DNA of 64,000 nt from a virus. Shown in pieces: positions 938 through 30,641 of this stretch. Each line of letters begins with the position of its first letter. The first letter of the stretch is position 1. The stretch lies in IMG/VR virus record IMGVR_UViG_3300009184_000038, positions 1 to 64,000 of that record, one strand, 5' to 3'. Below the pieces are notes generated by a model. It was not told the DNA's origin. It saw nothing but the letters and a program-made list of their open reading frames with translations, and ran no database searches. The translations under genes were made by a program, and so were the position numbers.

Positions 938-2570
938 CGGTTGTCAGGTGCTTGTCGCACCAGCCTTCTGTGACTGTTTCGTACTTCTGACCGCTGCGAT
1001 GGCACTCAAGCAAGAGTTCCCGCGAGCGGTTCACCCAATCCCCAACAAACTTGTCGATGTCTCGTCCAGTGGCCTCTGCGGCCTCGCGAAGTTCTTCTCG
1101 CATCCGCTGGCTCGTCTGATCGAACCACGTTGCGATCTTCTCGGGCTTGCTGCGGCGCTCGAGAACGCCGTCAGCTTCGACGGCGGCGAGACGGCGAAGG
1201 TTCGTCTTGAACAGCACCTCGGCACCGGCGACCTGTCGGGCATCCTCGGCAGCCGCGGGGGTGTCGGCGGCGGCCGGCTCGGGCGTGTCGGCCACGCCGG
1301 CCGGCGGAGCTGGCGAAGATTCGGTCTGCTTCTGCCCCGTGGGGTTGTCGGCGGTGAACGCCTCGAGCAACTGCATATTTACCTGAATGAACCGCTTCTT
1401 GCCCTGCCCGTCGGGCAGCGGGTTGTAGCCAATCTGCGAGCGAATTTCGTCGATGTCCAAGGCACCGAGGTTCGCCATCTCCCGCAGGAACTGCGAACGC
1501 GCGGCGTAGTCACCGACCATCAAGGCGTTCGTGTCGAACTGGCAGAAATACTGCTTGTCGTCGACTACGAGATCGCGGCGGCACGCCATTTCCCATCGGC
1601 GGCACCACGGGATCAAGCTGAACGTGACGAAGTCGATGGCCGACTGTTCCACAGTCGAGAAACGAACATTCGACAAATCACCGATAAGGTGGCCTGGGAC
1701 GCGGTAGGCACGCGAGACCTCCTCGCATTGGTACCGGCGAGTCTCAACGAGCATAGACGTATCGTTACGCTGCTCGATCTGCTTGCGGTGGAAGCCGAAC
1801 GGCATGACAACGGTTTTGTATGCGTTCATCGGCCCCTGATGGGCGTCGTTCCACTGCTCTCTGAACCGGGCCAGCACCTCTGGCTTGTGGGGCTGGTCGG
1901 TTTCGATGTAAGTGCCGGGCTGTCCGTTGTTCCCGAAGAATGCACCCGAGTGCAGCTCGGTCGCTCGGGCCAGACCGATCGCGTCTCGGGACAGGGTCGT
2001 TGGTACAAAGCCTGTCACCCCGTCTGACGAGAGCCACCGCAAATGAAAAATCTCGTCCTGCCGATACTCAGTGACCTCGATCTTGGGCTGAACCGGCGTC
2101 GTCGGTTCGGTGTAGTAATACCGGAGCTTGCCGTTGGTGAGCCGCTTGACCTCCATCCGCGAAGGATGCAGCGGGATAAGCTCGGTCACGCCGCCCTGCC
2201 GGCCGCCCTTGATGTGAGCGTAGGCGTTGCCCCAGAGCAGGAGCCAGCTTTGCATCAACTCGCGGAACTCGAAGCCCGTCATCCACGAGTTGGGCTGATA
2301 GCAGATGACCTCGTGGAGATGCTGCTCTTCGGCGATTTCCTTGCCGCCGCCGGGTAGGCGGCGGTAGACGTTGAAGGGGAGGCTGGCGATCGACTCCGAC
2401 AGTACGCGAACGCAGGCGAGAACAGCCGTGCATTCCAGGGCCGTCTCGGGCGAGACCGTGACGCCCGATGCCGTGCGTCTGGTATTGGAAATCTCCTCGA
2501 AGATGCGGGACAGATTGCCGCGAAGCTCAATCAGATCGGAGACTTCTTCGTCAATCTTATCCACGTTCAA
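921..2570 (-). CDS. HK97-family portal protein
   Basis: Motifs AVLACVRVLSESIASLP, LLLWGNAY, LIPLHPSRM, EIFHLR, RAYRVPGHLIG, EIRSQIGYNP; lies directly after terL. Confidence 0.96.
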   Translation of the reverse strand: MNVDKIDEEVSDLIELRGNLSRIFEEISNTRRTASGVTVSPETALECTAVLACVRVLSESIASLPFNVYRRLPGGGKEIAEEQHLHEVICYQPNSWMTGFEFRELMQSWLLLWGNAYAHIKGGRQGGVTELIPLHPSRMEVKRLTNGKLRYYYTEPTTPVQPKIEVTEYRQDEIFHLRWLSSDGVTGFVPTTLSRDAIGLARATELHSGAFFGNNGQPGTYIETDQPHKPEVLARFREQWNDAHQGPMNAYKTVVMPFGFHRKQIEQRNDTSMLVETRRYQCEEVSRAYRVPGHLIGDLSNVRFSTVEQSAIDFVTFSLIPWCRRWEMACRRDLVVDDKQYFCQFDTNALMVGDYAARSQFLREMANLGALDIDEIRSQIGYNPLPDGQGKKRFIQVNMQLLEAFTADNPTGQKQTESSPAPPAGVADTPEPAAADTPAAAEDARQVAGAEVLFKTNLRRLAAVEADGVLERRSKPEKIATWFDQTSQRMREELREAAEATGRDIDKFVGDWVNRSRELLLECHRSGQKYETVTEGWCDKHLTTDAAAT

Positions 2571-4069
2571 AGCACCATGAGGGTTGGTTCGTCGGTGTTG
2601 CCGTGGTTCTCGCTGCTGGAGATACCGAGGGCCATGATCAGAGAGACCGCGCCGTCGATGCGGGCCGTCGAGTGTGAGTGTTTTTTAGTAGGCTTTATGT
2701 TCCCGGCATCGTCGATCTTGACTTGAACATTCGACATCTGCCACGCCAGAACGGGGTTGCCAGCGTGTCTCAGCCTTTTGCCGACGACGAGTGTCTCGAG
2801 CAGCTTGCTCGGCGCGCTCATGCTGGCAAAGCCCTGTCCAAACGGCTTAACGTCGATTCCCTCCGCTACCAGTTGCGTCGTCAGATGCACCGCGTTCCAG
2901 CGGTCAATGGCGATGCCGCGAACTACATTCTTCTCGCAAAACGAGAGAATGTAATCTCGGACTGTGTCGTAGCAAGTGATATCACCATCCGTCATTCTAA
3001 CAAAACCAGCGTCCGCCCAGGCTTGATACGGCACTCGGTCTTCCTTCGACCGCTTGTGCGCGTTCTCCTCGGGGATGAAGAAGTGGGCGTGAACGTCATA
3101 CGTTCCATCGGCGTCGGGCCAGACCGCCACGAACGCCGTCGTATCGAATGTGCTGGCGAGGTCAACGCCGCACCAGCATGGCCGCCCTGCCGTCGGCCGC
3201 AGCGGCTCGTTGTTGGCGTCCCAGGCACCATGCCTGATCCACTTGGTTTCGGAACGCTGGAATAAATTCAAATGGAGCGTCTTGAAAACAGTCTCGTCTG
3301 CCGGCGAGTCCTTCGCCTTCTGTGCGAATTGATGGAAATACTCGGGTTTCAGCGTAATTCCGTAGTTCGGATTCGCCTTCTTCCACGTCTCCTCGACGAA
3401 CGGGTCGTCCTCGGGATCGGCGGCGTAGATGCACGGCAGGAACGAGTCGTCCTTCAGAACCCCATCGCGAATCTTCACTGCCCGCTGCCAGTCCTTGTAG
3501 CACGGGCCGTCCATGTCGGTGCCGGCCGTCGTGATGTAGATGGTGAGCGGCTGGCTCCTGGCTCCAGTACCCGTTTCCAATACATCGACCAGCTCGCGGT
3601 CGGGAAAGACGTGATATTCGTCGACCAGCACGCAACTCGGGTTGTAACCGTGTTTCGTGCCGGCCTCGCTGGAGATACAGAGCATCGTCGAGTTCTTTTC
3701 GGGGAACACGATGCTGTTGCGGTATATCTTGCACCGCTTCGCCAGCGATGGGCAGCTTTCGACGAACTGCTTCGCCGCGGTATGGAGCAGCGCCGCCTGA
3801 GAGCGGTCGCCGGCCGCGACGATCACCTCGGCCCCCTCGTCATCGCAGCACAACATGAACAATCCAACCGCTGCGGAAATCGCGGATTTTCCGTTCTTGC
3901 GGGGCAAGGCGAGCAGGCTTGTTCGATATTGGCGAAGACCGTCGGCCTTCTTCGTGTTGAAGAGTTTGTCGAGGTACTCGTCCTGCCAGGGTTGCAGGAC
4001 AAATGGCTGCCCCGCAAAGTCACCTCGACTGTGCTTCAGTAAGCCGATGAAATCGCGGATATCAACCAC
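2567..4069 (-). CDS. terL: Terminase large subunit
   Basis: LQPWQ, Walker A PRKNGKS, Walker B VLVDEYH, ITTAG, nuclease GVDLAS and RIDGAVS. Confidence 0.97.
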   Translation of the reverse strand: MVDIRDFIGLLKHSRGDFAGQPFVLQPWQDEYLDKLFNTKKADGLRQYRTSLLALPRKNGKSAISAAVGLFMLCCDDEGAEVIVAAGDRSQAALLHTAAKQFVESCPSLAKRCKIYRNSIVFPEKNSTMLCISSEAGTKHGYNPSCVLVDEYHVFPDRELVDVLETGTGARSQPLTIYITTAGTDMDGPCYKDWQRAVKIRDGVLKDDSFLPCIYAADPEDDPFVEETWKKANPNYGITLKPEYFHQFAQKAKDSPADETVFKTLHLNLFQRSETKWIRHGAWDANNEPLRPTAGRPCWCGVDLASTFDTTAFVAVWPDADGTYDVHAHFFIPEENAHKRSKEDRVPYQAWADAGFVRMTDGDITCYDTVRDYILSFCEKNVVRGIAIDRWNAVHLTTQLVAEGIDVKPFGQGFASMSAPSKLLETLVVGKRLRHAGNPVLAWQMSNVQVKIDDAGNIKPTKKHSHSTARIDGAVSLIMALGISSSENHGNTDEPTLMVL

Positions 4070-4544
4070 GCTTGGCTAGAAGAGCGTCCATTGGGTCTTG
4101 CACGACCTTCTCGGCGTGATAGCCCATTCGGGTGCGATCGGCTGGCGTCAGGCCGAGGACAGTCTCAAGCTGCCGGAGTTGCTCGTGGCAGTGATTGCTC
4201 TGGGACTGCCACTTGTTCGGGCGGCTGAAGCGGAGGGAGCCGTCGGGTGCCGTCACCTCGACCCACCCCGAGTCCAGCTTGGCAAGCTGCATCTCGGCGT
4301 CTCGCCAGCGATCCCAGATGATCGAGTATCGCGAGATCACTTCGACATCGCTCTCGGCCAGCGTGCCCATCCTTTGGGTGTAGCCGCAGACGAGGCTGAA
4401 CATCTCCCTGGCTGCCGGCCGCATCCATGACGGAGGGGCGGGCAGCGAGGACAAGGGTGTGCCTAACTCCTCGCGGTAGTTGGCTTCCTCGGAGCCTCGC
4501 AGCTTGAGGAGATGCTTCGGCGTTGGTGCTGGGCCGCGTGCCAT
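4062..4544 (-). CDS. terS: Terminase small subunit (P27 family)
   Basis: MARGPAPTPKHL..LRG, PAPPSWM, LGLTPADRTR; immediately upstream of terL. Confidence 0.9.
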   Translation of the reverse strand: MARGPAPTPKHLLKLRGSEEANYREELGTPLSSLPAPPSWMRPAAREMFSLVCGYTQRMGTLAESDVEVISRYSIIWDRWRDAEMQLAKLDSGWVEVTAPDGSLRFSRPNKWQSQSNHCHEQLRQLETVLGLTPADRTRMGYHAEKVVQDPMDALLAKRG

Positions 4545-4546
4545 GC

Positions 4547-5587
4547 CTAAGAGTATTGCACAGTAGGTAAGGGCCCCGCAAAGGAGTCGGATTTCTTGAT
4601 GTTGCACGCCCAGCAGGCGGCCTGGACATTGTCGGGTCTATGGCCTGGGCCGGAGGGGCCGTAAGACAGGGGCACGATGTGGTCGATCGTGGGGCTGCGT
4701 GGGTGCGGAGTCTCGCTGCCATCGATCTTCGTCCATTTGGAGAGCAGCTCACACTGGCATATCTGGCACGTCCAGTTGTCGCGATGAAGTATCGACTTCG
4801 CTGGAAACGATTCGTAGTGGCAGCCGTATTTAATGCACCTACGTTTGTGTCCGCCAGAATTGATTCCGACATTCAGCGGCGTGCATGTGTCGTTACCCCA
4901 CGAGCTGAACCAGACGGCGATCTGCTCGTCAAGCGTAGCTCCAGGCCGGCTCGTCAGCCTAGCGCATGGAAGGCGAAGTCGCCTCGCCTCGAAGGCACAT
5001 TCTCTGGAGCAGTATTTGCCAGCGTTTCGCCCAGATGTGCGCTTTCGGAATGGCTTTTGACAACAGAGGCACTGCCGCCGCTTCGCCCGCCTTTTGGATG
5101 CCTCCGCTCGCTTTCCCTGGGCCTCCGAGATGGCTTTTTCAGCGCAGGGCCGCGAACAGAACAGGCTTCTTGACCGGCCTGGGATAAAGGCTTTGCCGCA
5201 GCACTTGCACGCTTTTTCGGCGAATCGACTGGGGTATCGGCATTTCTCGCTACAGAACATCGAGTTGATTAACCCGACGAAGCTCACGCCGCATCCGCAG
5301 CACGTCCGATCGTGAACCCTCTTCTTCCGCTTCGCTGCACGGCGGCACGCTTCAGAGCAGTACCTTCGCGACCGCCCACTCGCTCGCGAGTCCTGCGGAA
5401 CGCCGGCACCGCAGGAGACGCACGCAACAGTCGCTGGCTTTAGCGGCCTCCCCTCGGCGGCTCGCTGGCAGCGACGAGAACAGTATTTTCTCGGCTTAAC
5501 GCCGAGCGAGGGGGGGAGCGACGACCCGCAAACAACGCAGCATTTGCCATCCTTGGCGTTTTCTCCGGCGTCTCCACGCACCCACAC
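4547..5587 (-). CDS. HNH endonuclease with five N-terminal CxxC...(Y/F)CSxxC zinc-ribbon repeats
   Basis: C-terminal RDNWTCQIC...TIDHIVPLS...H...NVQAACWACN; repeated KYCS/RYCS/FCS motifs. Start codon uncertain. Confidence 0.85.
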   Translation of the reverse strand: MWVRGDAGENAKDGKCCVVCGSSLPPSLGVKPRKYCSRRCQRAAEGRPLKPATVACVSCGAGVPQDSRASGRSRRYCSEACRRAAKRKKRVHDRTCCGCGVSFVGLINSMFCSEKCRYPSRFAEKACKCCGKAFIPGRSRSLFCSRPCAEKAISEAQGKRAEASKRRAKRRQCLCCQKPFRKRTSGRNAGKYCSRECAFEARRLRLPCARLTSRPGATLDEQIAVWFSSWGNDTCTPLNVGINSGGHKRRCIKYGCHYESFPAKSILHRDNWTCQICQCELLSKWTKIDGSETPHPRSPTIDHIVPLSYGPSGPGHRPDNVQAACWACNIKKSDSFAGPLPTVQYS

Positions 5588-5711
5588 AGTCTACCGCACA
5601 AGACATTTTCTCCAAATCGTCGGGCTGCGGAGGCGACCAGCAAAAATAGTACGCCCCCCGGCGTGCCTTCTCCTTAGGACATGCGGTCTGCCCTGCGCCA
5701 CCCCTCGACCG

Positions 5712-5734
5712 GGCACCCCCCATTGGGGGGTGCC
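5712..5734. repeat. Perfect inverted repeat GGCACCCCCC-ATT-GGGGGGTGCC in the candidate genome-end (cos) region
   Basis: Seen directly. Lies between the divergent packaging operon and the plus-strand island. The cos role is inferred from position only. Confidence 0.5.
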
Positions 5735-5817
5735 GCTGACGGGCCACCCCCTGCGCTGTGTCTCCCGCCGAATTCCGTCAAGAATCAAGCAGCGCATGCC
5801 GAATCAATAACCTAGGC

Positions 5818-5845
5818 TTGACGCACACTGTGCGTCTGCTAATAT
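5818..5845 (+). promoter_or_regulatory. Sigma70-like promoter P1 with overlapping palindrome
   Basis: TTGACG-N16-TAATAT with extended -10 TG. Inverted repeat GACGCACA-C-TGTGCGTC at 5820-5836. Shares TAGGCTTGACnCACAC with P2. Confidence 0.75.
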
Positions 5846-5895
5846 CTGTGCATGCGGGCCGCGCGGCCCGCGATCACCAACGAAGAGAGAAGACG

Positions 5896-6729
5896 ATGAA
5901 AACCGCGAATGCCCCTAGCGTCTTAGGTACCTTTTCCAAAGCTATCCCAACTGCGCGAAGCTTGAATTTCGGTCTATCGGGGGGCGCAAACTGTGAAACT
6001 AGTTGTCGCCACCACCCGATTCATTATTCGGGCGCATTGTCGCACGATGGTCAATGCTATGCCTATGTAGTGGAAGGTAGGAACGATAGGGTACAACTCG
6101 CCGACAAGTTGGGCAGGCATGAGACGATGAAAGCCTCCGAAATCGTCGGGATGGCTTTGGTTGAGTTGTCGCGTCTCAAGCTATACGGAAAAGACTTGCC
6201 CCCTTGGTTTCGATTCTCAACCAACGGCGCAATACCGACTAAAGAGGCTGCGCTTGCCGACCGTCGGTTTATTCCACTACTCCGCGAACTACTGAAATTC
6301 TGCGTTGCCAACGCTATGAAAGTACACTTGCCCGTAGAGTCTGCCGAAAAGGCTGCGTTTTATCGCGAAGTTATTGGTGATCTCGTTACCATTCGCGAGT
6401 CTATTCAGACGCACGATATGAATCCCGACACTATCGCCACCCATGCGATACCTTTGGGCGCATCGTCTTTCACCGCTGGTGAAAATGTCGGCAAGGGGCC
6501 GCACAAGCGTAATCGTATCCTAGCCGCCGCCGCCGCCGCCGCCGCCGCATGGGCAATGCGAACGGGTCGAAAAACCATCGTCTGCCCCGCCGTCAGAGTG
6601 TCTTTCCTATCGCGTTACAAAAATGGAAAAACACGCGAAGAGAACATTGCATGGCGTGAACGCGCGAAGTGTGGCCTCTGCCCCGCGTGCGCCTTGCCGA
6701 ATGTTGACGTAGTGTATCCAGCCCATTGA
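5896..6729 (+). CDS. Cys-containing protein, possibly GP88-like
   Basis: NFGLSGGANCETSC...CYA...WFRFSTNG...C-terminal KCGLCPAC; ATG preceded by the island leader motif. Confidence 0.55.
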   Translation: MKTANAPSVLGTFSKAIPTARSLNFGLSGGANCETSCRHHPIHYSGALSHDGQCYAYVVEGRNDRVQLADKLGRHETMKASEIVGMALVELSRLKLYGKDLPPWFRFSTNGAIPTKEAALADRRFIPLLRELLKFCVANAMKVHLPVESAEKAAFYREVIGDLVTIRESIQTHDMNPDTIATHAIPLGASSFTAGENVGKGPHKRNRILAAAAAAAAAWAMRTGRKTIVCPAVRVSFLSRYKNGKTREENIAWRERAKCGLCPACALPNVDVVYPAH

Positions 6730-6766
6730 TTGAACCACCACCACCACCAACGAAGAGGGTAAAGCC

Positions 6767-6988
6767 ATGCGCGAACGGTTCAATGTAGTTTTGTGGGAAA
6801 AGAGAATGCGACAAGCCATCGCCGATAGGAATGGCGATAGGCTTGCAAGCCTCATGTATGAGAACGATAGGAACGGAGTCTTTTCGTATGATGATTCATG
6901 GGCAGAGGGTTGGGAATACACTCGCGAAGAGTGGATTGTAAGTCTGATCGAATGCGCCGAAACCATGCTGTCGGGAATCAATGACTGA
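6767..6988 (+). CDS. Hypothetical acidic protein (paralog of 7022-7276)
   Basis: Leader CACCAACGAAGAGGG; shares RMRxAIA and REWI..LIE motifs with the next gene. Confidence 0.75.
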   Translation: MRERFNVVLWEKRMRQAIADRNGDRLASLMYENDRNGVFSYDDSWAEGWEYTREEWIVSLIECAETMLSGIND

Positions 6989-7021
6989 CTAGGAACCACC
7001 ACCAACGAAGAGGGTAACGCA

Positions 7022-7276
7022 ATGACTAACGAAGAGACCGCAATGATTGAGCGCATTGAGCAGGCGATAGAAGACCGCGACCCGCGTCGCATGCGGGAAG
7101 CTATCGCCGAATGGGACGGCAAGCCCACTATGTCGGCGAAACAGTTTCGCGATACATTCCAAGGCGCGCGCCGCCGCGAATGGATCGACTACTTAATTGA
7201 GGAATGCGAAGAGGTAGTCGGCATGATAAAAACCAACGATGCCGATGACTACTGGGCGACGCGCGGCCGCATTTAA
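7022..7276 (+). CDS. Hypothetical acidic protein (paralog of 6767-6988)
   Basis: Same leader motif; shared peptide motifs. Confidence 0.75.
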   Translation: MTNEETAMIERIEQAIEDRDPRRMREAIAEWDGKPTMSAKQFRDTFQGARRREWIDYLIEECEEVVGMIKTNDADDYWATRGRI

Positions 7277-7289
7277 TTTCATCACCAAC

Positions 7290-7321
7290 GAAGAGGGCAG
7301 GCGCATGCGCCTGCCCTCTTC
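7290..7321. terminator. Perfect 32-bp palindrome, possible terminator or attenuator
   Basis: GAAGAGGGCAGGCGCA|TGCGCCTGCCCTCTTC just after the first island operon; no clear U-tract. Confidence 0.5.
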
Positions 7322-7327
7322 TCCTGC

Positions 7328-7386
7328 GCGGTGGTGTGCGTCTGCTCCTGCCTAGCCGTAGGCGGTGGTGTGCGTCTGCTCCTGCC
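7328..7386 (+). repeat. 25-bp direct repeat, two copies
   Basis: GCGGTGGTGTGCGTCTGCTCCTGCC at 7328 and 7362; core TGTGCGTCTGCT also occurs in promoter P1 (5829-5840). Confidence 0.9.
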
Positions 7387-7802
7387 CCCGACCGTGGCAA
7401 CGAGCACCGCGCCCCCCGAACATGGGAACCAGCGCACCAGGCGAGCACCCCCGAACGTGGCAACGAGCTGCCACCCCCGAACGTGGGAACCAGCAGCCGC
7501 CGGGCGATCACCCCCGAACATGGAAACGCGCGGCCCGGCCGTGGAAACGAGCAGCCCCCGAACGTGGAAACTCGGGGGTATCACGAGCCGGCCGGCCGCC
7601 TTATCGGCCCTCCTGGGGCATCCTATAGCTGCCATTCTGGCGAAAACTGCCCCCGACCGTGGAAACGGTGGCCGACCGTGGAAACGATGCGCAGCCCCCG
7701 ACCATGAAAAAAATTGTCGCCATCGGGGAGGCTCGAGGTTAGCCCCGACCGACGAATTTTCTCACACTACCAACTGTCCAGGCGGCCCCCGACTGTGGAA
7801 AA
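7385..7802 (+). repeat. Non-coding array of about 12 co-oriented degenerate CCCCCGAMCRTGGVAAC repeats
   Basis: Copies near 7385, 7413, 7448, 7474, 7511, 7534, 7555, 7650, 7671, 7695, 7743, 7786. Confidence 0.88.
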
Positions 7803-7834
7803 ACACGCTGAGAAAAGAAAAAAAGATTTTAGGC

Positions 7835-7862
7835 TTGACTCACACCATGCCGACTGTATGCT
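7835..7862 (+). promoter_or_regulatory. Sigma70-like promoter P2 with upstream A-tract
   Basis: TTGACT-N16-TATGCT preceded by AGAAAAGAAAAAAAGATTTT (UP-like); homologous to P1. Confidence 0.75.
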
Positions 7863-7923
7863 TGGGTGATCACGCGGCGACGATTCGCCCGGTTGAACAG
7901 GTGACACGAAAAGGAGACGAGCG

Positions 7924-8409
7924 ATGACGGCAACGGAGACAAGGGTATGGGAAGTGATTCGCGGCTTCGGCCCAATCGATGAGGGGCGTGAAAAGTGTTT
8001 CGACGTTGAACGTCTCAAGCGCAGGTTCACCAGCGAAGCCGATGCTGTGGCATTCGCTGAGTCGCACTACGATGCACGGGTCGGCAAGCTTATGCGGCGC
8101 ATGCCCGACTGGTGGCAATCGTTCTTCGTGATCGTGCGGCCCGCGAAGGCCACCGTGCCGACGGCTGCGGGTCTCGCGCTGGTATTCGACCGTCGCCTGC
8201 GTGACGATATCGGCAGTGATGCCTATGCGGAGGTGATCCGTCGCAATCGCACCCCCGACTATGAGCGGGCCTGCGCATCGCACGACTTCTGCGATGCGAA
8301 CGTGACGATGATCGAAGCCATGATGGAATTCGGCATCACCCCCGACGATGACTTCGGCCATGCCCTGTTCAATGCAGCATGGGATGCATGGCGCGAGAAG
8401 ACGAAGTAA
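7924..8409 (+). CDS. Hypothetical protein
   Basis: RBS AAGGAG; CASHDFCDAN motif. Confidence 0.75.
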   Translation: MTATETRVWEVIRGFGPIDEGREKCFDVERLKRRFTSEADAVAFAESHYDARVGKLMRRMPDWWQSFFVIVRPAKATVPTAAGLALVFDRRLRDDIGSDAYAEVIRRNRTPDYERACASHDFCDANVTMIEAMMEFGITPDDDFGHALFNAAWDAWREKTK

Positions 8410-8464
8410 TTCACCCCCGACCGTAACAACCACCAACGACCACCCCCGAACGGAGAAACGAGAC

Positions 8465-8698
8465 ATGATCACGATGCTTGGACTGGAAACCCGCAGTTAT
8501 ACCTTCAAAGCATTCGGTGCGACCGAAGGCGATGCGCTGCGTGAACTGTGGGCAGCATGGAAGAGGCATGTGAAGCAGTGCAACATCAGTCTGGCCGACT
8601 CATGCTTCCCGACGATTGACCACATGAAACTTGAGGGCATCAGCATCATCAAAATCTACAAGCTGCCCCTCTGCCTGCGGGACGGCGAGACGATCTGA
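8465..8698 (+). CDS. Hypothetical protein
   Basis: ATG follows leader CCCCCGAACGGAGAAACGAG. Confidence 0.7.
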   Translation: MITMLGLETRSYTFKAFGATEGDALRELWAAWKRHVKQCNISLADSCFPTIDHMKLEGISIIKIYKLPLCLRDGETI

Positions 8699-8745
8699 CC
8701 CCCGACCGTAACAACCACCACCACCCCCGAACGGAGAAACGAGCG

Positions 8746-9240
8746 ATGAACGATACGACATGGTATTCGGTTTATGAGCATAAGGATGCGAGCGGATACG
8801 ATTCGGACTATATGCCATTCAACACGAAGGAAGAGGCAATCGCAGACGCGAAGTCTAACCTAGAATTCGCTGGCGGCATCGGCGGCGAGATTTTCGTGAT
8901 CCCCGTGCCGACCGAATGGTACGCATCGCTGCCCGAAGATGCCGAATGGTCTCTGTGGGATGAGATGGAGCGAATCCCTGCCAGTGATTACATCTGGATT
9001 CACTGCGGCATGGAACGGGCAGAAATCCGCGCGGAACACGAAATGCCGCTACCGCAAGAGACCACCGATATCGTGGACGAGATGCTAGACATGGCAGAAA
9101 TCGTCCATGCGGAGATGAGCGAAATGCTGACGAATGCGGCAGACGAGATCACGCGGCTGCGTGAACAGGTCAACGAGACGCATCGCATCATTCATGAGCA
9201 GAATATTGAGATCATCAAGATGATGAGCGCGAAACGGTAA
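8746..9240 (+). CDS. Hypothetical acidic protein with C-terminal coiled coil
   Basis: Same leader; very D/E rich; AADEITRLR motif. Confidence 0.75.
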   Translation: MNDTTWYSVYEHKDASGYDSDYMPFNTKEEAIADAKSNLEFAGGIGGEIFVIPVPTEWYASLPEDAEWSLWDEMERIPASDYIWIHCGMERAEIRAEHEMPLPQETTDIVDEMLDMAEIVHAEMSEMLTNAADEITRLREQVNETHRIIHEQNIEIIKMMSAKR

Positions 9241-9268
9241 CCACCACCCCCGAACGGAGAAACGAGCG

Positions 9269-9424
9269 ATGACGAATCTGACCTTGCAACAGGCCCGCGA
9301 TGCTGTGCGGCGTGAATATCTTCTCGTTGGCCTGGATGCCGACGTGGAGATCGAAGGGTTCGCCGACATGGATGCCGACCAACTCCGCGACGAGATCACC
9401 TACCTTGCCGACTATCAAGGCTAA
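9269..9424 (+). CDS. Small acidic protein (51 aa, not in ORF track)
   Basis: Same leader; MTNLTLQQARDAVRREYLLVGLDADVEIEGFADMDADQLRDEITYLADYQG. Confidence 0.7.
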   Translation: MTNLTLQQARDAVRREYLLVGLDADVEIEGFADMDADQLRDEITYLADYQG

Positions 9425-9497
9425 AGACTACTGTAGACGACTTCAGAACCCCCGACCGACGAAACGATACCACCACCCCCGAACGGAGAAACGAGCG

Positions 9498-10142
9498 ATG
9501 CTGACGAAAGATATCAAACTAGGAATGCAGGCCCGCGTGAAGATTGGCGACCGTCTCGCGGTCGTGACCGTGACCAACAAAGCCAACTACAGCGGCGGCC
9601 GACGGCAGGAATGGTTCTGCCGAACGCACGATACCGGGCGCATGATCACCGCGACGGCTGCGCGGCTGCGGCCCATGCCCGGAACACCAGAGAATGCGGC
9701 GGCGCATGCCCGACGGCTGAAAGCGGCTGAGAAGCGATGCGCGGCGAAGCCGAACGTCTCCACCCCCGAACACACTCCAGTGCTCGTCGCCCCGCAGCCC
9801 GTGCCTGGAGTGTTCGCGGTGGCGAATCCCGCCCGCCCGATTGAACGCATGGCCCGGTTCAATCATGAGGGTATCGCCCGGATTCTGGACGGCATCCATG
9901 TCGGCGCATCGTGGCGGGACGCCTGCCGCGCCGTCTTCAAGGTGGTCGGCAAGGGCGGGAGGCTGCGAGGGATGCCGCTGCCGATGCGGCGTGGGTGCTG
10001 GCAGGCAGTCGCCGAAATCCATGCCGACAACCTCGCGGCGTATCGCGAGGTGATGGGACACAAGCCACTCCCGACCGTGGAAATGATCACGGCTGCGATG
10101 CGTGGAGACGAGGCCGCGCGGCGAGCGGTGCTGGCGAGCTGA
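9498..10142 (+). CDS. Hypothetical basic protein
   Basis: Same leader; N-terminus MLTKDIKLGMQARVKIG...TGRMITATAARLR. Confidence 0.7.
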   Translation: MLTKDIKLGMQARVKIGDRLAVVTVTNKANYSGGRRQEWFCRTHDTGRMITATAARLRPMPGTPENAAAHARRLKAAEKRCAAKPNVSTPEHTPVLVAPQPVPGVFAVANPARPIERMARFNHEGIARILDGIHVGASWRDACRAVFKVVGKGGRLRGMPLPMRRGCWQAVAEIHADNLAAYREVMGHKPLPTVEMITAAMRGDEAARRAVLAS

Positions 10143-10217
10143 TCGAATGCGATACCCCCTGGTGCGTTACCTGGGGGCCGACCGTGGAAACGATAAACCC
10201 GAATAAGGAAACGAGAG

Positions 10218-10676
10218 ATGTACGGAACAGTGAGACTCGAGGCTGGCGGATTTTGTATCGACGATGAGCGTGAAGCGATGGTGCAGGATTTTCTGAACCG
10301 CACCGGCATCACCATGCGGGCGACGTTCGTGGAATACGCTCCATTCTTCGATGATGAAGACAAGCCGCGATGCATCTGGAGAGTGTCGATTCGCCTGGAT
10401 CGTCGCGGATTCTCCGTCCGATTCGGTCAGTCGATCGTCGCCAGCGAACAGGGGCTGCCGCCGACTGCCGCCGATGTTCTCGCCTGCCTGCCGCACAGCG
10501 ACCCCGGCAGTCTTGAGGAGTTCATCGACGAGTATGGCGAGTGCTGCGCCGACGAGATGCCTATGCGGAAGTATCGCCGAATGGAGCGGGCCTGGAAGGA
10601 AACCCGTCGCCAGTGGCGGCAGATCGAACGTGTCTTCGGCAATATCGTCGGCCTTGACGAGCTGGATTCGTTTTAA
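10218..10676 (+). CDS. Hypothetical protein
   Basis: Variant leader AAGGAAACGAG; FGQSI...PTAADVLACL..SDPGSLEEFIDEYG. Confidence 0.75.
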   Translation: MYGTVRLEAGGFCIDDEREAMVQDFLNRTGITMRATFVEYAPFFDDEDKPRCIWRVSIRLDRRGFSVRFGQSIVASEQGLPPTAADVLACLPHSDPGSLEEFIDEYGECCADEMPMRKYRRMERAWKETRRQWRQIERVFGNIVGLDELDSF

Positions 10677-10721
10677 CCCCCGTGCATGAGAACCAATAAC
10701 CCCCGTAGCAGGAAACGAGAA

Positions 10722-10922
10722 ATGAAACCGATGCTCCCCTGGTGGTCGTGTTCAGCAACGATCCTCGAGTTCGATCCCGTCTTTGGAGAATACGTCGATA
10801 ACACCATCGATCATGACACGCGGGCCGCGACTGCGGAGGAGGCTGAAGAGGATGCCCGCGAAACGTGGAGCGATCACGGGTACAACCCCGAGCGAGTAAA
10901 GGTGCGGAGGGTCGAAGGATGA
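10722..10922 (+). CDS. Hypothetical acidic protein
   Basis: Variant leader CCCCCGTAGCAGGAAACGAG. Confidence 0.65.
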   Translation: MKPMLPWWSCSATILEFDPVFGEYVDNTIDHDTRAATAEEAEEDARETWSDHGYNPERVKVRRVEG

Positions 10923-11209
10923 ACGCCTACCAACTCTCCCCCCGCGTGACGCTCCAGCCTGGCGATCGATTCCGCGCGAGCGGCGGCCCCTACTGGAAGT
11001 GCGGCAGCGAAACGATACCGATGGCAGCTCGTGGCTTATTCACGCTCGTTGAGGTGCTCCGCAGGAGGAGCCGGGTCTACCTCCTCGCGGTCGGGCGGGA
11101 GGGCTACTGCCTCCTGCACGTCGAAGGCAGGAGGAAAAACAAGTCGATGCCGAATCTCGTCTGCCGGCCGTATCGGATTCGGCGGGCGGCCAGCCAGAAA
11201 AATCCTTGA
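10919..11209 (+). CDS. Hypothetical basic protein
   Basis: ATGA overlap with the previous gene. Confidence 0.65.
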   Translation: MNAYQLSPRVTLQPGDRFRASGGPYWKCGSETIPMAARGLFTLVEVLRRRSRVYLLAVGREGYCLLHVEGRRKNKSMPNLVCRPYRIRRAASQKNP

Positions 11210-11226
11210 GCCCAACGAAAGACCGC

Positions 11227-11255
11227 TTGACTACTAGCCAATCTTTCTTTAGGAT
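11227..11255 (+). promoter_or_regulatory. Sigma70-like promoter P3 overlapped by a CTACTAG box
   Basis: TTGACT-N17-TAGGAT; GACTACTAGCC at 11229-11239. Confidence 0.6.
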
Positions 11256-11339
11256 TGCCACAGAACGAGACGATACTAGCAGGGGCCGCGGTGGCCCCGA
11301 CCGGCGAAACGAGAAAACCCCGACTAGGAGAACGCGACG

Positions 11340-11609
11340 ATGGGAGCCGTGAAACGATTTTACGAAGACTGTGCCGAGGCAGGCCGATGCCCGCTCTCGA
11401 CGGAGGCTTTCGGATATCTGGACGACCTGGAATGCGAGCGAGATATCGACTGGATCGGCTACTGCGAGCATGACTATGTCGGCCGTGACGGTCGACTGTA
11501 CGTCGAGGAGTGCATCACGATGGAGTCGGCCCGCCGGCTTATTGCCGAGGGGCTGGCGCACCCCGAGATCGTGAATTTCGTGGAGTGTTTCGGAGATATG
11601 TGCGTCTGA
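11340..11609 (+). CDS. Hypothetical acidic protein
   Basis: RBS AGGAG and variant leader. Confidence 0.65.
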   Translation: MGAVKRFYEDCAEAGRCPLSTEAFGYLDDLECERDIDWIGYCEHDYVGRDGRLYVEECITMESARRLIAEGLAHPEIVNFVECFGDMCV

Positions 11610-11800
11610 CGGGATTCCCCGCCGACACGAACGAGTACGAGTTCGTCATTACTTCCAGCCGCATCGTCGGCCAGCTCGTGATGCACGACCATGAGGATGG
11701 CACTGCGGAGTATGACACTCCGTTCACGATGACCCTCGCCGGCCTCCACAACTTCCTGCGGCAGTTGCCGCGCCATGCGAATGCGTTTGCTATCGACTGA
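11600..11800 (+). CDS. Hypothetical protein (GTG start)
   Basis: GGAG RBS upstream; overlaps the previous stop. Confidence 0.5.
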   Translation: MRLTGFPADTNEYEFVITSSRIVGQLVMHDHEDGTAEYDTPFTMTLAGLHNFLRQLPRHANAFAID

Positions 11801-11879
11801 ACCAGACCTAGCACCCGCGCTCGAGGGCCGCCGCCACCCCCGAGCGTGATAACCCCGAGCGGCGAAAGCAGAGGACACG

Positions 11880-12338
11880 ATGAAGACGAAGACCCCAAAG
11901 AAGCGGCTGACCGGCAAGGCCGTTGACCGCGAAATCGATGAAGAGCGAGCCCGCCTGCGGAAGTACCTCGCGAAGCTCACGCTGGAGAAGCCAAGGAGCG
12001 ACGACAGCGGCTATGAGTATCGGCTGCCGCTGACGTTTCGGATGTTCACGATCGTGTATCAGATCGACAAGGCAATGGTCGGCACGCCCGACTACATGGG
12101 CATCGCCGGATGGTGGAGCTACGAATACAAATTCGACCTGCGCGAGGCGACGAATAAGGAGCGGAAGAAGGCGCACGACGCCATCCTTGCCGCCGGCCTT
12201 CCGTTGGACGGCGAAAGCCAGGAGCACGCCCAGATCGTCGCCTGGGCAACGAACAACGGCAGGATGGCTGCCAAGGCAATGGGCGGCAAGTGGTCGCCGT
12301 ACCGTGGCCCCCGACCGGCGAAACGAGGTGCGACATGA
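11880..12338 (+). CDS. Hypothetical protein
   Basis: RBS GAGGA and variant leader. Confidence 0.7.
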   Translation: MKTKTPKKRLTGKAVDREIDEERARLRKYLAKLTLEKPRSDDSGYEYRLPLTFRMFTIVYQIDKAMVGTPDYMGIAGWWSYEYKFDLREATNKERKKAHDAILAAGLPLDGESQEHAQIVAWATNNGRMAAKAMGGKWSPYRGPRPAKRGAT

Positions 12339-12616
12339 AGAAAGACGACCGCGTGATGCGGGACTATGTGATGGGTGGCAACTACGTTGGCACCGTCGCG
12401 ACGATCTGCTCCCTCCGCGAAAACGGGTGGAGCGTCGAAGAGATTGCTGCACAGATGCCGATCATCGGCAAGACTTGTGGCAACGAGGCGATACGGGCAG
12501 CCGGCTTGAACGGTGGGCCTCGAGTTAGTTCGCTCTACGAGCACATGAATCTGTTCGGAGAGCAACTGTGTGAGAGACTGCGTGAACTGCGGACGATGGA
12601 TATTTCCACCAACTAA
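12335..12616 (+). CDS. Hypothetical protein
   Basis: ATGA overlap; leader CCCCGACCGGCGAAACGAGG embedded in the upstream gene. Confidence 0.65.
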   Translation: MKKDDRVMRDYVMGGNYVGTVATICSLRENGWSVEEIAAQMPIIGKTCGNEAIRAAGLNGGPRVSSLYEHMNLFGEQLCERLRELRTMDISTN

Positions 12617-12629
12617 GGAGACCCCGTAC

Positions 12630-12806
12630 ATGAAAAACAGACTCAATCCCTACGAGGCCGGCTGGCTGACATTTCTGGTCAGCTCCGGCATCGCCAGCGA
12701 GGCCGACTGCCGTGCCGCGATGAACCGCGTGGCCCAGGAAGCCCTCGACGAGATCAATCGCCTGCGGGCGAAAAAGAAGGCTGGAAAACGTCGCAAGGAT
12801 CGATAG
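12630..12806 (+). CDS. Hypothetical protein
   Basis: RBS TAAGGAG. Confidence 0.65.
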   Translation: MKNRLNPYEAGWLTFLVSSGIASEADCRAAMNRVAQEALDEINRLRAKKKAGKRRKDR

Positions 12807-12869
12807 GCTACTAGCCGATGGTTTGATTAGCTACTAGGAACGATTTCACCTGAAGAAAGGAGGCTCAGA

Positions 12870-13178
12870 ATGAGCCGTTCAGTGGGCGATTCGGTATGGC
12901 TCTCGACAACGCACGTCGCGTTTGACGGTGAGGCCAGAGCACACATTGTCCCGGCCACCGTGGCTGGCGTGTTTGAGAACATCGTGATGGTCAAGATGCC
13001 GAGCGGTATGGTCACTTCGGCGAGGCAGGGCGTGGATTCGCTCTGCGACAGCGAGGCAGAGGCATGGGCTCTCGCTGCCCGCGAGTTGTCCGAGGCCCGC
13101 GATCGCGTCCAGGCGGCGATCGACAATGCCGTCGCCAAGGCGGCCAGCAGTCGCGTCGGGGAGGCTGTCGCGACATGA
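12870..13178 (+). CDS. Hypothetical protein
   Basis: RBS AAGGAGG. Confidence 0.75.
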   Translation: MSRSVGDSVWLSTTHVAFDGEARAHIVPATVAGVFENIVMVKMPSGMVTSARQGVDSLCDSEAEAWALAARELSEARDRVQAAIDNAVAKAASSRVGEAVAT

Positions 13179-13321
13179 ACCCCCGTGCGTGGAAATGGGT
13201 CATGGATGACCTGATCCGCACCCTCGTGCTCGTCCGACTCGGGCAATTGCTCGGGTCGGAGAGCACGGCGGCGCGGGCCGTCCACGACCTCGTCGAGGCT
13301 GTTTTTTCGATTGTCAGATGA
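13175..13321 (+). CDS. Small hypothetical protein
   Basis: ATGA overlap; GGAGG RBS. Confidence 0.55.
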   Translation: MNPRAWKWVMDDLIRTLVLVRLGQLLGSESTAARAVHDLVEAVFSIVR

Positions 13322-13375
13322 TTGGTATGACGCATAGAATGTCACCCGTACCCCCGAGCATAGAAACTAGAGGAG

Positions 13376-13750
13376 ATGACGATGCTTTACGTTCTAGGCG
13401 ACTCAAGTGAGCCGCGGCAGTTTAGGCGAAAAGATGGCGAGTGGACGCCGAACATCGACGATGCCGAGCATATGACCATCGAAGATGCCATCGACAAGCA
13501 GGCCGAGCTGATCGACGACCCCCGCATCATCAACGTATGCGAGGCACCGCTCATGCACGAGGCGATGTACGCGGACATGGGCCGTCGGTTCGACGAATTG
13601 CAGGAGCGGCTTCGCGAGCACGAAGTGTTCCTCGAGTACGAGATCGGCGAGGGCGACGAGACGACTTGGAAGATCACGTTTGAGCGGGCTGGCGTGGCCC
13701 TCGTTCTCAAGCTGGAAGACCCGAACTCTTTTGAAATGGTGGACGCATGA
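13376..13750 (+). CDS. Hypothetical acidic protein
   Basis: RBS GAGGAG and variant leader. Confidence 0.7.
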   Translation: MTMLYVLGDSSEPRQFRRKDGEWTPNIDDAEHMTIEDAIDKQAELIDDPRIINVCEAPLMHEAMYADMGRRFDELQERLREHEVFLEYEIGEGDETTWKITFERAGVALVLKLEDPNSFEMVDA

Positions 13751-14028
13751 ACGACGAGTTTAAAGACTATCTGACGATCATCCAGACAGCCAAAGCCGTA
13801 GGCTGCTCGCGGCGAACGCTGTACCGAGTCGTTGAGCGGATCGGCACCGACGAGATCGTGACCGTGGCATTCGGCAAGCGGCTCGTCCACAAGTCGAAGG
13901 TTGCCGCCATCAAGGCCGCCTATATGCCCCTGGGGAGTAAGAAGCACTCAATGGCTGCTCGTGCCTGGGGGTCGGCCGGCGGGACGCAGAAGCGAATCAA
14001 TCGCGAGAAGGCAGCCAAGAAAGCCTAG
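13747..14028 (+). CDS. Helix-turn-helix DNA-binding protein (excisionase/HTH_17-like)
   Basis: YLTIIQTAKAVGCSRRTLYR...FGKRLV. Confidence 0.8.
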   Translation: MNDEFKDYLTIIQTAKAVGCSRRTLYRVVERIGTDEIVTVAFGKRLVHKSKVAAIKAAYMPLGSKKHSMAARAWGSAGGTQKRINREKAAKKA

Positions 14029-14312
14029 CTCGAGTCGCGGGCCGTGCGCCGCGCATGGCAGGAGTGGCACGTTGTCCTTAAATTGCTCATGGACTCATCA
14101 CCCCCTTTCGACTTCTCGACGATATGGTCGATGTCGGGGCTGCCGGTGACGAGCAGCCCGCACAACTGGCAGATGCCCATGTCGCGGGCGATCACGGCAA
14201 GCCGGGTGCGCCGCCACGCCGCAGAGCAGTAGCCGCGGGCCGCCGCCGTCGGCCGCTCCTGCCCCCGTGCAGGGGAACGATCAGGACGGTACGTCGGGAT
14301 TCTTTTCGGCAC
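14025..14312 (-). CDS. Small HNH endonuclease (HK97 gp74-like packaging HNH)
   Basis: MPKR...AAARGY...WRRTR...RDMGICQLCG...DIDHIVEKSKGG...NLRTTCHSCH. Confidence 0.9.
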   Translation of the reverse strand: MPKRIPTYRPDRSPARGQERPTAAARGYCSAAWRRTRLAVIARDMGICQLCGLLVTGSPDIDHIVEKSKGGDESMSNLRTTCHSCHARRTARDSS

Positions 14313-21383: not shown

Positions 21384-22106
21384 TCATTTGCGCATACGCG
21401 CCAGAAATGCCTTCAGTGTTGCCGCGACCTCCTCGTACTTGGCATCCGCCGTGAGGCGACTGTAAGCCAATGCAATCGCCTCTCGCTCTGCGTCAGAAAG
21501 AACTCGCGACTCCAGCAATTCGATGTGCCGCGCCAGTCGGTACATCACGCCAGCCGTCTGTCGCGACCACTGATCGAACGTCTTGCAGACGCCTTGCAGA
21601 TTCTCAGCCGCCTGATAAGCGATGCCAGCCATGCCGACGGTGCCCTCGCCATGCACACTACCCTCGCTTGGTGTATCGTCCCGATCCGTATTAGTGTTCG
21701 TGCGTTTTTCGTCGCCTTCATCATATGATGGGCTCTCCCATTCCGGCCGCAGCCTGACGAGCAGCGACCGCATTACGCCGTAGACGCTCATGCTGGCGAT
21801 TCTGCCGTCCTCGACCACACACTCAATCGCATCAATCTCGGCTTCAGAAAGATTGCCGGTGCCCATAGCGGGTAGCGTCACGGGTTTATCAGTCCCGCCG
21901 CATCCGCCCCCATTCCCCAGTGGAACTGAGGATTCAGATGGGTCTGTACGGGCTATCGCTTCCGGCACAGCGTCATGATTTGTTCGCCCCCGCTCGCGGA
22001 TCATGGCGTCGGCCATTTCGTAACACGATTTTGCAATCTGCTCGTAGCCGAGAACGCCCATCCCGCGAGTTAAAGCTGCGGCGGCGAAATAGTCACGGTC
22101 AGTCAT
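21384..22106 (-). CDS. Mosaic paralog family protein
   Basis: MTDRDYFAAAAL...YEMADAMIRER...HDAVPEA...LSDAEREAI...ATLKAFLARMRK. Confidence 0.7.
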   Translation of the reverse strand: MTDRDYFAAAALTRGMGVLGYEQIAKSCYEMADAMIRERGRTNHDAVPEAIARTDPSESSVPLGNGGGCGGTDKPVTLPAMGTGNLSEAEIDAIECVVEDGRIASMSVYGVMRSLLVRLRPEWESPSYDEGDEKRTNTNTDRDDTPSEGSVHGEGTVGMAGIAYQAAENLQGVCKTFDQWSRQTAGVMYRLARHIELLESRVLSDAEREAIALAYSRLTADAKYEEVAATLKAFLARMRK

Positions 22107-30452: not shown

Positions 30453-30641
30453 TCACGACGCGGCCTCCTCCGTTTTCGGAGGGGCGCGGTAGATCAGTTC
30501 CTCGCGGATGATCTTGACGTGCTTGGGTGCGTCGATGACGAGCCTGACCGTCTTGCCTACGACAGACTCGACCGTGATCTCGATGCGAGGCCGATCCAGA
30601 ATGAGCTTCTGGCCGGGGCGACGAGTTAAGCAAAGTGCCAT
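30453..30641 (-). CDS. csrA: Carbon storage regulator CsrA/RsmA homologue
   Basis: LCLTRRPGQKL...IEITV...VRLVIDAPKHVKIIREEL. Confidence 0.9.
   Translation of the reverse strand: MALCLTRRPGQKLILDRPRIEITVESVVGKTVRLVIDAPKHVKIIREELIYRAPPKTEEAAS

Follow-up and report, generated by a model that had tools for sequence, protein, structure and literature searches.

A strand-locked bipartite repeat arrayed upstream of a hypervariable phage gene island, with a cis-linked winged-helix protein as its candidate reader

The window analyzed here is a 64,000-nucleotide stretch of DNA, the first 64 kb of a 74.5-kb viral contig (IMG/VR record IMGVR_UViG_3300009184_000038) that was judged complete. At positions 7386–7802 it carries a non-coding array of 12 units of a 16-nt repeat, hereinafter the tag, all on the plus strand, just upstream of a promoter and of an island of about 16 small genes whose junctions hold further copies. 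We tentatively favor the explanation that the array and the junction tags are DNA sites of a winged-helix protein encoded by the last gene of the island, through which the island comes under stoperator-like control. The array is the multimerized form of a lineage-specific, orientation-locked, bipartite element, in all likelihood one of control, with copies at almost all the gene junctions of an island of hypervariable early genes.

Results and discussion

A bipartite tag locked to one strand

The consensus of the tag is CCCCGAMCGTGGAAAC (CCCCG-N6-GAAAC). A position weight matrix (PWM) refined on six complete genomes of the phage family, with no position fixed, recovered 226 sites on the island strand versus 4 on the other; the same bias is seen in G023, the seventh complete genome (29 versus 0), and in two contigs of a metagenome-assembled genome (MAG) of Pirellulales (31 versus 0 and 24 versus 0). 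Information content is bipartite: every position of CCCCG (positions 0–4) and GAAAC (11–15) holds 0.9–1.9 bits, positions 5–6 and 9–10 hold 0.3–0.7 bits, and the flanking positions hold almost none. In the window, a degenerate pattern allowing up to two mismatches gave 24 matches, all on the plus strand and all within 7387–13367, versus 1.8 expected and a maximum of 7 in shuffled sequences.

The units of the array start at 7386, 7414, 7449, 7475, 7512, 7533, 7556, 7651, 7670, 7696, 7743, and 7787. A repeat finder returned 11 copies of a 14-nt core, and fuzzy matching together with reading of the sequence added degenerate units to give 12. Seven units form a first sub-array (7386–7571; start-to-start steps of 28, 35, 26, 37, 21, and 23 nt); a central spacer without units (7573–7645), almost identical in the close relative L054 and recognizable in L053, separates it from a second sub-array (7651–7758) made up of the units at 7651, 7670, and 7696 and the degenerate unit at 7743. 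Between the window and L054, the conservation of this 75-nt unit-free interval exceeds that of some units. The last, promoter-proximal unit (7787–7802) has a counterpart in the relatives and lies 32 nt upstream of the −35 hexamer of P2, a sigma70-like promoter (TTGACT-16-TATGCT; −35 at 7835–7840, −10 at 7857–7862) that follows an A-rich UP-like tract, tract and promoter together spanning 7806–7862. Downstream, the island (7924–14028, plus strand) carries one to three units at each junction, amounting to 21 PWM sites between 8416 and 13353. Unit spacing within the window ranges from 19 to 95 nt.

An earlier sequence-only reading of the window had described about 12 co-oriented repeats in a region devoid of any credible gene, and both statements hold. 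The 117-aa minus-strand open reading frame (ORF) at 7282–7635 matches nothing in Pfam, five related genomes contain no homologue of it, and indels of 2 nt and 1 nt disrupt its frame in L054. We also rejected protein-coding repeats as an explanation on these grounds and because the unit spacings are not multiples of three.

The tag stands in a close relationship to gene starts: 63% of the units lie 8–70 nt upstream of a credible start versus 22% for random island positions, with peaks in the unit-to-start distance at +8, +20–29, and +30–49. In 55 sites, as assigned by a classifier, the center of the tag is a Shine-Dalgarno (SD) core (GAGGA or GGAG) situated 4–10 nt before an ATG, the core of the consensus leader in the window being 5 nt upstream of it. 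In another 17 sites, mostly in G002, the central RTG is itself the actual start codon, and the GAAAC half then supplies codons 2–3. In array units, and at each junction in the upstream unit, GTGGA or GGCGA predominates at the center and is neither SD nor start. The kinship between the array repeats and the gene leaders, first noticed in the window, extends well beyond it. In the G002 island (L195–L198; reverse-complement 2668–10951), most genes start inside a tag of the form …CCCCGACC-ATG-GNA-AC…, and their products therefore begin Met-Glu/Ala/Gly-Thr, a nucleic-acid constraint on protein N-termini. Family-wide, distances between neighboring units peak at 15, 21, 23, and 25 nt and are not helically phased. 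Many junctions of the G004 and G009 islands additionally show, immediately ahead of the upstream unit, a GC-rich hairpin (…GGCACGTTGCCGGC…) that is largely absent from the junctions of the window.

Several known classes of repeat were considered and rejected. The tag cannot be a single-subunit RNA polymerase promoter of the adjacent gene, as it holds that gene's SD or AUG; a search of the genome for the phage single-subunit RNA polymerase family PF00940 gave no match, which says little given that control genomes gave none either. An extracytoplasmic function (ECF)- or sigma54-type promoter formed across neighboring units would require spacings that are not kept and would yield a transcript without an SD. 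CRISPR arrays have repeats of fixed length with regular spacers and VIPR arrays have 5-nt periodic repeats near a Cas-like gene, unlike the 16-nt units and irregular 3–21-nt spacers seen within the sub-arrays, and no Cas-like gene turned up among the annotated proteins. Chi-like sites and attP arm sites were set aside on geometry or on the association with starts.

A single syntenic array in each genome of one phage family

The exact 16-mer tag was found in 45 stretches of the viral contig collection, mostly in several clustered copies and always on one strand per contig. The tag-bearing contigs belong to one phage family, with terminases 74–96% identical to that of the window in the complete genomes; all the comparative evidence presented here comes from this one lineage, in which co-occurrence cannot separate function from shared descent. 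Genes in the relatives were called by simple rules based on ORFs and on GC content at third codon positions (GC3). In each genome, the tag sites are confined to one 6–15-kb island of small co-oriented genes.

Defining an array as at least 4 sites with gaps of at most 40 nt, we found one array per genome, in a syntenic position upstream of the island promoter. For G002, this criterion picked a degenerate distal cluster, and inspection revealed the array of 3+3 units on the promoter side, in the syntenic position. The order of parts is the same in all seven complete genomes: a tandem-repeat block, an array of 3–12 units, sometimes a small gene, and then the proximal unit, followed in each case by an A-rich tract with a TTGAC-type promoter and the island. 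P2 itself is conserved family-wide, the relatives having an extended −10, and a unit or its GAAAC half lies 24–32 nt upstream of the −35 in G002, G006, and G009. The array is kept in L054, from which the window differs by whole-unit insertions and deletions; a search for more close relatives for footprinting found only L054. Decay of the array from empty gene cassettes, entertained in the sequence-only reading, is unlikely, since every genome has exactly one array and its site is syntenic.

Between the array and the promoter-proximal unit, most complete genomes have a further conserved box, TTCTCACA...TGTCCA. In the window it takes the form TTCTCACA-N8-TGTCCA (7759–7780, plus strand), and it is also found in G001, G004, G006, L026, and L097. 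Its first half is one mismatch away from a DnaA-box-like 9-mer and, because this deviation is consistent, TTCTCACA is probably a site for something other than DnaA.

The tandem-repeat block directly upstream of the array constitutes a second kind of repeat, present in every genome with a sequence and period (34–68 bp) that differ from one to the next, i.e., a fast-evolving sequence in a fixed position. In the window it comprises a 25-nt direct repeat in two identical copies, at a period of 34 bp, detected by the repeat finder on the plus strand at 7328–7386; the equivalents lie at 1555–1940 in G001, 1–270 in G004, about 21790–22020 in G009, and 2210–2480 (reverse complement) in G002.

A winged-helix protein as candidate reader

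The island ends with a gene (13747–14028, plus strand) that codes for a 93-aa protein with weak helix-turn-helix (HTH) matches in Pfam. An AlphaFold (AF2) model (pLDDT 81.6) used as a Foldseek query gave RacA, BldC, the Pukovnik Xis, the RdfS excisionase, pSK1 Par, and TraN as best matches, with probabilities up to 0.99, pointing to a winged HTH of the Xis/BldC/RacA type. Two members of the family match a PHROG of recombination directionality factors, and a protein atlas places the family near HTH_17/AlpA-type clusters. It is a narrow family, with 236 clusters among 1.84 billion representatives. Several proteins of this fold class bind direct DNA repeats set in arrays, in many cases upstream of the gene that encodes them.

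The gene is linked in cis to the tag throughout the phage family. The protein of the window is homologous to the product of a small gene, a second paralogue, found directly after the array in G004, G009, and L041, and one or both paralogues occur near the distal end of the island in 6/6 complete genomes and also in G023. Among loci of at least 8 kb with at least 4 sites, 23 of 27 encode the HTH protein on the motif strand, versus none of 7 loci with chance single matches; in three of the four exceptions (L018, L021, L033, and L054), namely L018, L033, and L054, the island runs off the end of the stretch or contig. The array-adjacent paralogue (the MKIETDEW type) was rejected as a universal reader, being absent from the window, G001, and G006, while the broader family is universal. 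Some members (P0017, P0056, and P0070) are long proteins of up to 1166 aa with 5–7 tandem copies of the domain, which could read repeat arrays as single chains. We regard the protein encoded at 13747–14028 as the best candidate for the reader of the tag.

Is the tag read on DNA or on RNA?

We infer that this protein reads the tag, that it does so on DNA, and that the outcome is regulatory. The dense array just upstream of P2, which would be a strong host-type promoter, may serve as a high-occupancy site controlling initiation, and the one to three copies at each junction might work as stoperators do, halting or tuning elongation along the direction of transcription. An island with freely changing gene content would in this way be shut off by feedback or silenced in a prophage.

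Four considerations lead us to favor DNA. First, the array lies upstream of a conserved promoter and no promoter was predicted between it and the palindrome that precedes it (see below); neither a promoter nor a terminator was predicted to frame it. Second, array and promoter in G001 have a minus-strand gene between them. Third, the two halves of the tag are about one helical turn apart, a layout that would suit a monomer reading an asymmetric site. Fourth, the stoperators provide a clear precedent for the pairing of an asymmetric, bipartite site with a DNA-binding protein linked to it.

The main competitor, which we hold to be a serious though doubtful possibility, is a translational operator acting at the RNA level: a sequence-specific RNA-binding factor would clamp the CCCCG and GAAAC flanks and occlude the central SD or AUG, in the manner of the RegA protein of T4, which turns off early mRNAs, with the array as a 5′ leader or decoy RNA that buffers or times repression. 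Strict sense-strand orientation, the excess of units shortly before starts, and the constraint that the tag places on the first two codons in G002 are all in keeping with it, as are the paired units 21–29 nt apart, which would suit a dimeric RNA binder, and an array no more structured than its shuffles, as expected of a single-stranded binding platform. The family-wide presence of CsrA, an RNA-binding regulator with canonical binding residues, offers a further point in its favor, and this protein could serve the GGA-containing subset of tags only. No candidate reader, however, fits the CCCCG...GAAAC specificity, the array lies on the upstream side of the conserved promoter with none predicted to feed it in the window, and in G001 there is the intervening gene. 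The association with starts does not discriminate between the two levels, because any intergenic DNA site in a compact genome is near the next start.

Certain observations nevertheless weigh against DNA sites of the winged-helix protein. The register of the tag is exact, its variable center coinciding with the SD or with the start codon in the 55 and 17 sites noted above, and this fits an occluding RNA-level reader more naturally, although the need to save space where the gaps between genes are short may be the cause instead. The array of G004, G009, and L041 closes with a unit that ends 7–8 nt before the start codon of the HTH gene, so that at least part of the array is probably in the mRNA there; in G004 and G009, this unit forms the ribosome-binding region of that gene. 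Unit spacing is unphased and wider than the ~10-bp steps of Xis/BldC filaments. The Foldseek E-values are weak (0.07–0.4), and the link between the HTH gene and the tag is one of co-occurrence within a single phage lineage, no independent lineage having been found.

The phage CsrA and the sponge hypothesis

The sequence-only reading had interpreted the array as a CsrB-like RNA sponge for a CsrA encoded by the same phage. The protein is indeed there (30453–30641, minus strand; Pfam PF02599, E-value 4.7e-15), and alignment with the E. coli CsrA shows that LTRR and the arginine of the REE motif, canonical RNA-binding residues, are kept, from which it looks functional. CsrA is family-wide: of 22 records with the motif, 16 contain it, among them every complete record that has more than one site, and the complete motif-bearing records without it have only single chance tag matches. 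In a second contig set, it was found in all five larger contigs able to hold it; 20 further relatives are fragmentary contigs without the island end and are uninformative for the co-occurrence of motif and CsrA. The gene is not linked to the island, lying 15–25 kb away on the opposite strand.

Binding by CsrA depends on GGA, usually presented in a hairpin loop. On the sponge hypothesis, the transcribed array would titrate the phage or host CsrA, as do CsrB and RsmY/Z, by means of such loops. The co-occurrence of a canonical CsrA with the motif across the family (albeit within one lineage) and the presence of GGA in 8 of the 12 units of the window speak for it. The count of about 9 GGA in the sequence-only reading was accurate (exactly 9 in the 417 nt of 7386–7802), but this is no enrichment: 8.1 are expected from mononucleotide composition and 9.7 from a first-order Markov model (P = 0.41–0.65), and the density in the array (~2.2 per 100 nt) is close to the 2.0 of island coding sequence. 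GGA is canonically placed in only 52% of the units in the array and 41% of the upstream units at junctions, and the second commonest core, GGCGA, has no GGA; the conserved positions are CCCCG and AAC, not GGA.

The proposed CGT-GGAA-ACG mini-hairpin can be drawn in several units, though it shows no covariation. A full 3-bp hairpin is possible in five units of the window, with a GGAA loop in three (7533, 7651, and 7670) and a GGCA loop devoid of GGA in two. All three pairs are canonical in 33 of 179 unique units, A8 facing C15 in 42 cases and G or A at position 9 facing A14 in 82; there is no compensation, since positions 8 and 9 vary while the bases opposite them stay invariant. Rfam yielded no match to CsrB, CsrC, or Rsm even at E ≤ 10, all matches being far below the gathering scores, and the array folds no better than its shuffles (z = 0.18). 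With neither a promoter nor a terminator framing the array and with the csrA gene distant on the other strand, we consider a sponge very improbable. As a caution, a repeat with a few GGA beside a phage csrA should not be read as a sponge.

Turnover of the island genes beneath the tag

The island genes are almost entirely non-homologous among genomes whose core genes are 75–100% identical. As the tag is kept throughout, the element is maintained while the genes under it turn over. For example, G009 and the window share a 96% identical large terminase subunit (TerL) and a 100% identical CsrA, yet have only parts of the island in common. This turnover invites an explanation in which the tags are cis-only cassette linkers, i.e., a shared translation-initiation and junction module without a dedicated reader that is kept because related phages exchange gene cassettes by recombination at the junctions, the array being a by-product or a landing pad. 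A second leader family, which serves the genes upstream of the array, is compatible with it, as is a modest excess of homology-block ends near units (7 of 17 within 25 nt versus 15% for random positions), a statistic that is confounded, as units sit at gene boundaries and block ends are not independent. Recombination, on the other hand, needs contiguous identity rather than bipartite conservation around a free center; deletion between direct repeats would leave one copy, not 4–12; and each genome has a single syntenic array. Such linkers therefore appear unlikely to us.

A related conception retains the reader and joins tag, array, promoter, and Xis-like protein into one self-sufficient unit, an "addressable cassette island" in which the array would be a landing pad for crossovers. 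We regard it as a long shot. If true, early expression followed by shut-off through one reader would automatically apply to any gene placed between two tags, the tags would be preferred crossover points for accessory-gene exchange between related phages, and the whole would amount to a phage version of an expression platform of the integron kind, built on a different chemistry.

Genomic setting, replication or packaging signals, and host

The minus strand of the window codes for a portal, the large and small terminase subunits, and an HNH nuclease at 0.9–5.6 kb, and from 14 kb on almost all other genes are again on that strand. The plus-strand genes span 5758–14028. Those upstream of the array use the other conserved leader, "leader A" (ACCAACGAAGAGGG; 6998–7012, 7022–7036, 7281–7297, and 7290–7321), and end at a perfect 32-bp palindrome (7290–7321; 16+16 nt, 100% complementary) in which the SD box of leader A is paired with its own inverted copy. 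The palindrome is a possible terminator or insulator and is not conserved in L054. Together with P2, it bounds the array as the sequence-only reading had described.

Two minus-strand HNH genes (4547–5587 and 14025–14312) bracket the plus-strand genes. The second, small one closes the island and occupies what we take to be the position of the packaging HNH beside the terminase in cos phages; the island appears to be inserted between this HNH gene and the terminase. The ends of the linear contigs G002, G004, and G023 directly adjoin the small terminase gene.

This setting raises the possibility that the array is a replication origin, a centromere, or a packaging or injection signal, bound by an initiator, a Par-like protein, or the terminase. 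It is the only large non-coding region, combining two kinds of tandem repeat with an A-rich tract; the island lies between the two HNH genes and the terminase genes; the array is at most 2.5 kb from a contig end in 5 of 7 complete genomes; and the fold of the HTH protein resembles the centromere binders RacA and pSK1 Par. None of this explains the one to three sense-oriented copies at almost every gene start. Moreover, unit spacing is irregular, the two "terminal repeats" (32 and 127 bp) resemble overlaps left by assembly more than physical ends, and contig breaks near tandem repeats are expected from assemblers. We accordingly judge such a role improbable. As regards an iteron-type origin, with regularly phased repeats beside an initiator gene and an unwinding element, the window shows unphased spacing, an A-rich tract, and replication genes more than 17 kb away. 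The sequence-only reading had offered a DNA site as its alternative to the sponge, and in this it anticipated the protein-binding DNA array that we now favor, albeit of an operator or stoperator type rather than the iterons or packaging signal that it named.

Database comparisons found no close cultured relative of the phage. Among bacterial-genome contigs, only short ones carried multiple tags: L061/L295 and L294, from one Pirellulales MAG, and L097, from a second. They provide a weak hint of the host that was not confirmed in 300–400 other genomes of the group: in 301 Pirellulales genomes only terminases of at most 46% identity were found, and the HTH family occurred in none of 400 other genomes of the phylum.

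Comparison with known systems

Several systems share individual features with the tag. Like CsrB and RsmX-Y-Z, the array is non-coding, repeat-rich, and irregularly spaced, with a CsrA in the same genome; unlike them, it has no GGA enrichment and no conserved GGA-loop hairpins, and its conserved residues fall outside GGA. The PeSL cassettes of T4-type phages consist of host-type promoters plus a stem-loop and have been proposed to aid modular shuffling. They resemble the tag as conserved regulatory junction modules flanking small hypervariable early genes. The tag, which encloses the SD or AUG, is for that reason not a promoter, and a separate sigma70-like promoter heads the island.

The candidate reader has its fold in common with BldC, the Xis proteins of lambda and Pukovnik, pSK1 Par, and RacA. 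BldC/Xis-type proteins bind arrayed direct repeats that in many cases lie upstream of their own gene, as is seen here in G004, G009, and L041. The repeats of these systems follow one another at steps of ~10 bp with protein-protein contacts, in contrast to the 21–28 bp steps of the tag. The candidate reader also has extra C-terminal helices and a conserved YYPxGS...WG..GG tail not found in BldC, Xis, Par, or RacA.

The stoperators of Cluster A mycobacteriophages come close to the mode of action proposed here. Their reader, the immunity repressor typified by L5 gp71, is a monomer with two DNA-binding modules, an HTH and a stoperator domain, that silences both initiation and elongation, and the dependence on stoperator orientation is documented (PMC9283540). 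Stoperators and tags alike are numerous asymmetric 13–16-bp intergenic sites with an orientation locked to transcription. Stoperators, however, are genome-wide and lack a tandem array, whereas tags are confined to one island and form one of 4–12 units. We found no homologue of the Cluster A repressor, the candidate reader having an Xis/BldC-like fold instead.

In its relationship to gene starts, the tag recalls the start-associated sequences (SAS), together with their extended version (ESAS), of Cluster K mycobacteriophages (Pope et al., 2011, PMC3203893; survey PMC12699233). The SAS consensus is GGGATAGGAGCCC, its flanks cannot pair with 16S rRNA, and neither its reader nor its mechanism is identified in these papers, as of 2025 (PMC3203893; PMC12699233). 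Both elements are short asymmetric repeats that contain an SD core between conserved flanks not pairing with 16S rRNA, and both sit a few bases upstream of the starts of unrelated genes, in one orientation, in a non-structural region. The sequence is different and the phage lineage unrelated, making the tag an analogue and not a member. Unlike the SAS, the tag also occurs without an SD or with a central AUG and is cis-linked to a winged-helix gene, and a tandem array of SAS upstream of a promoter is not described in the Cluster K papers (PMC3203893; PMC12699233).

Start-associated phage repeats have thus been known since 2011, and the present lineage offers a cleaner case for identifying their reader, be it of DNA or RNA, by virtue of a bipartite and specific tag, a single syntenic array beside a strong promoter, complete gene turnover, and a winged-helix gene of a narrow family that travels with the tag. 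If the island holds genes for host takeover or anti-defense, the tag would furnish a practical marker for such genes in metagenomic phages. A full-text literature search for the tag motif gave no match, and we did not find the tandem array beside a promoter or the linked Xis-like gene described as additions to either of the last two systems. The tag would work like the SAS, the stoperators, or both, and belongs to neither: its sequence, its lineage, and its candidate protein are different.

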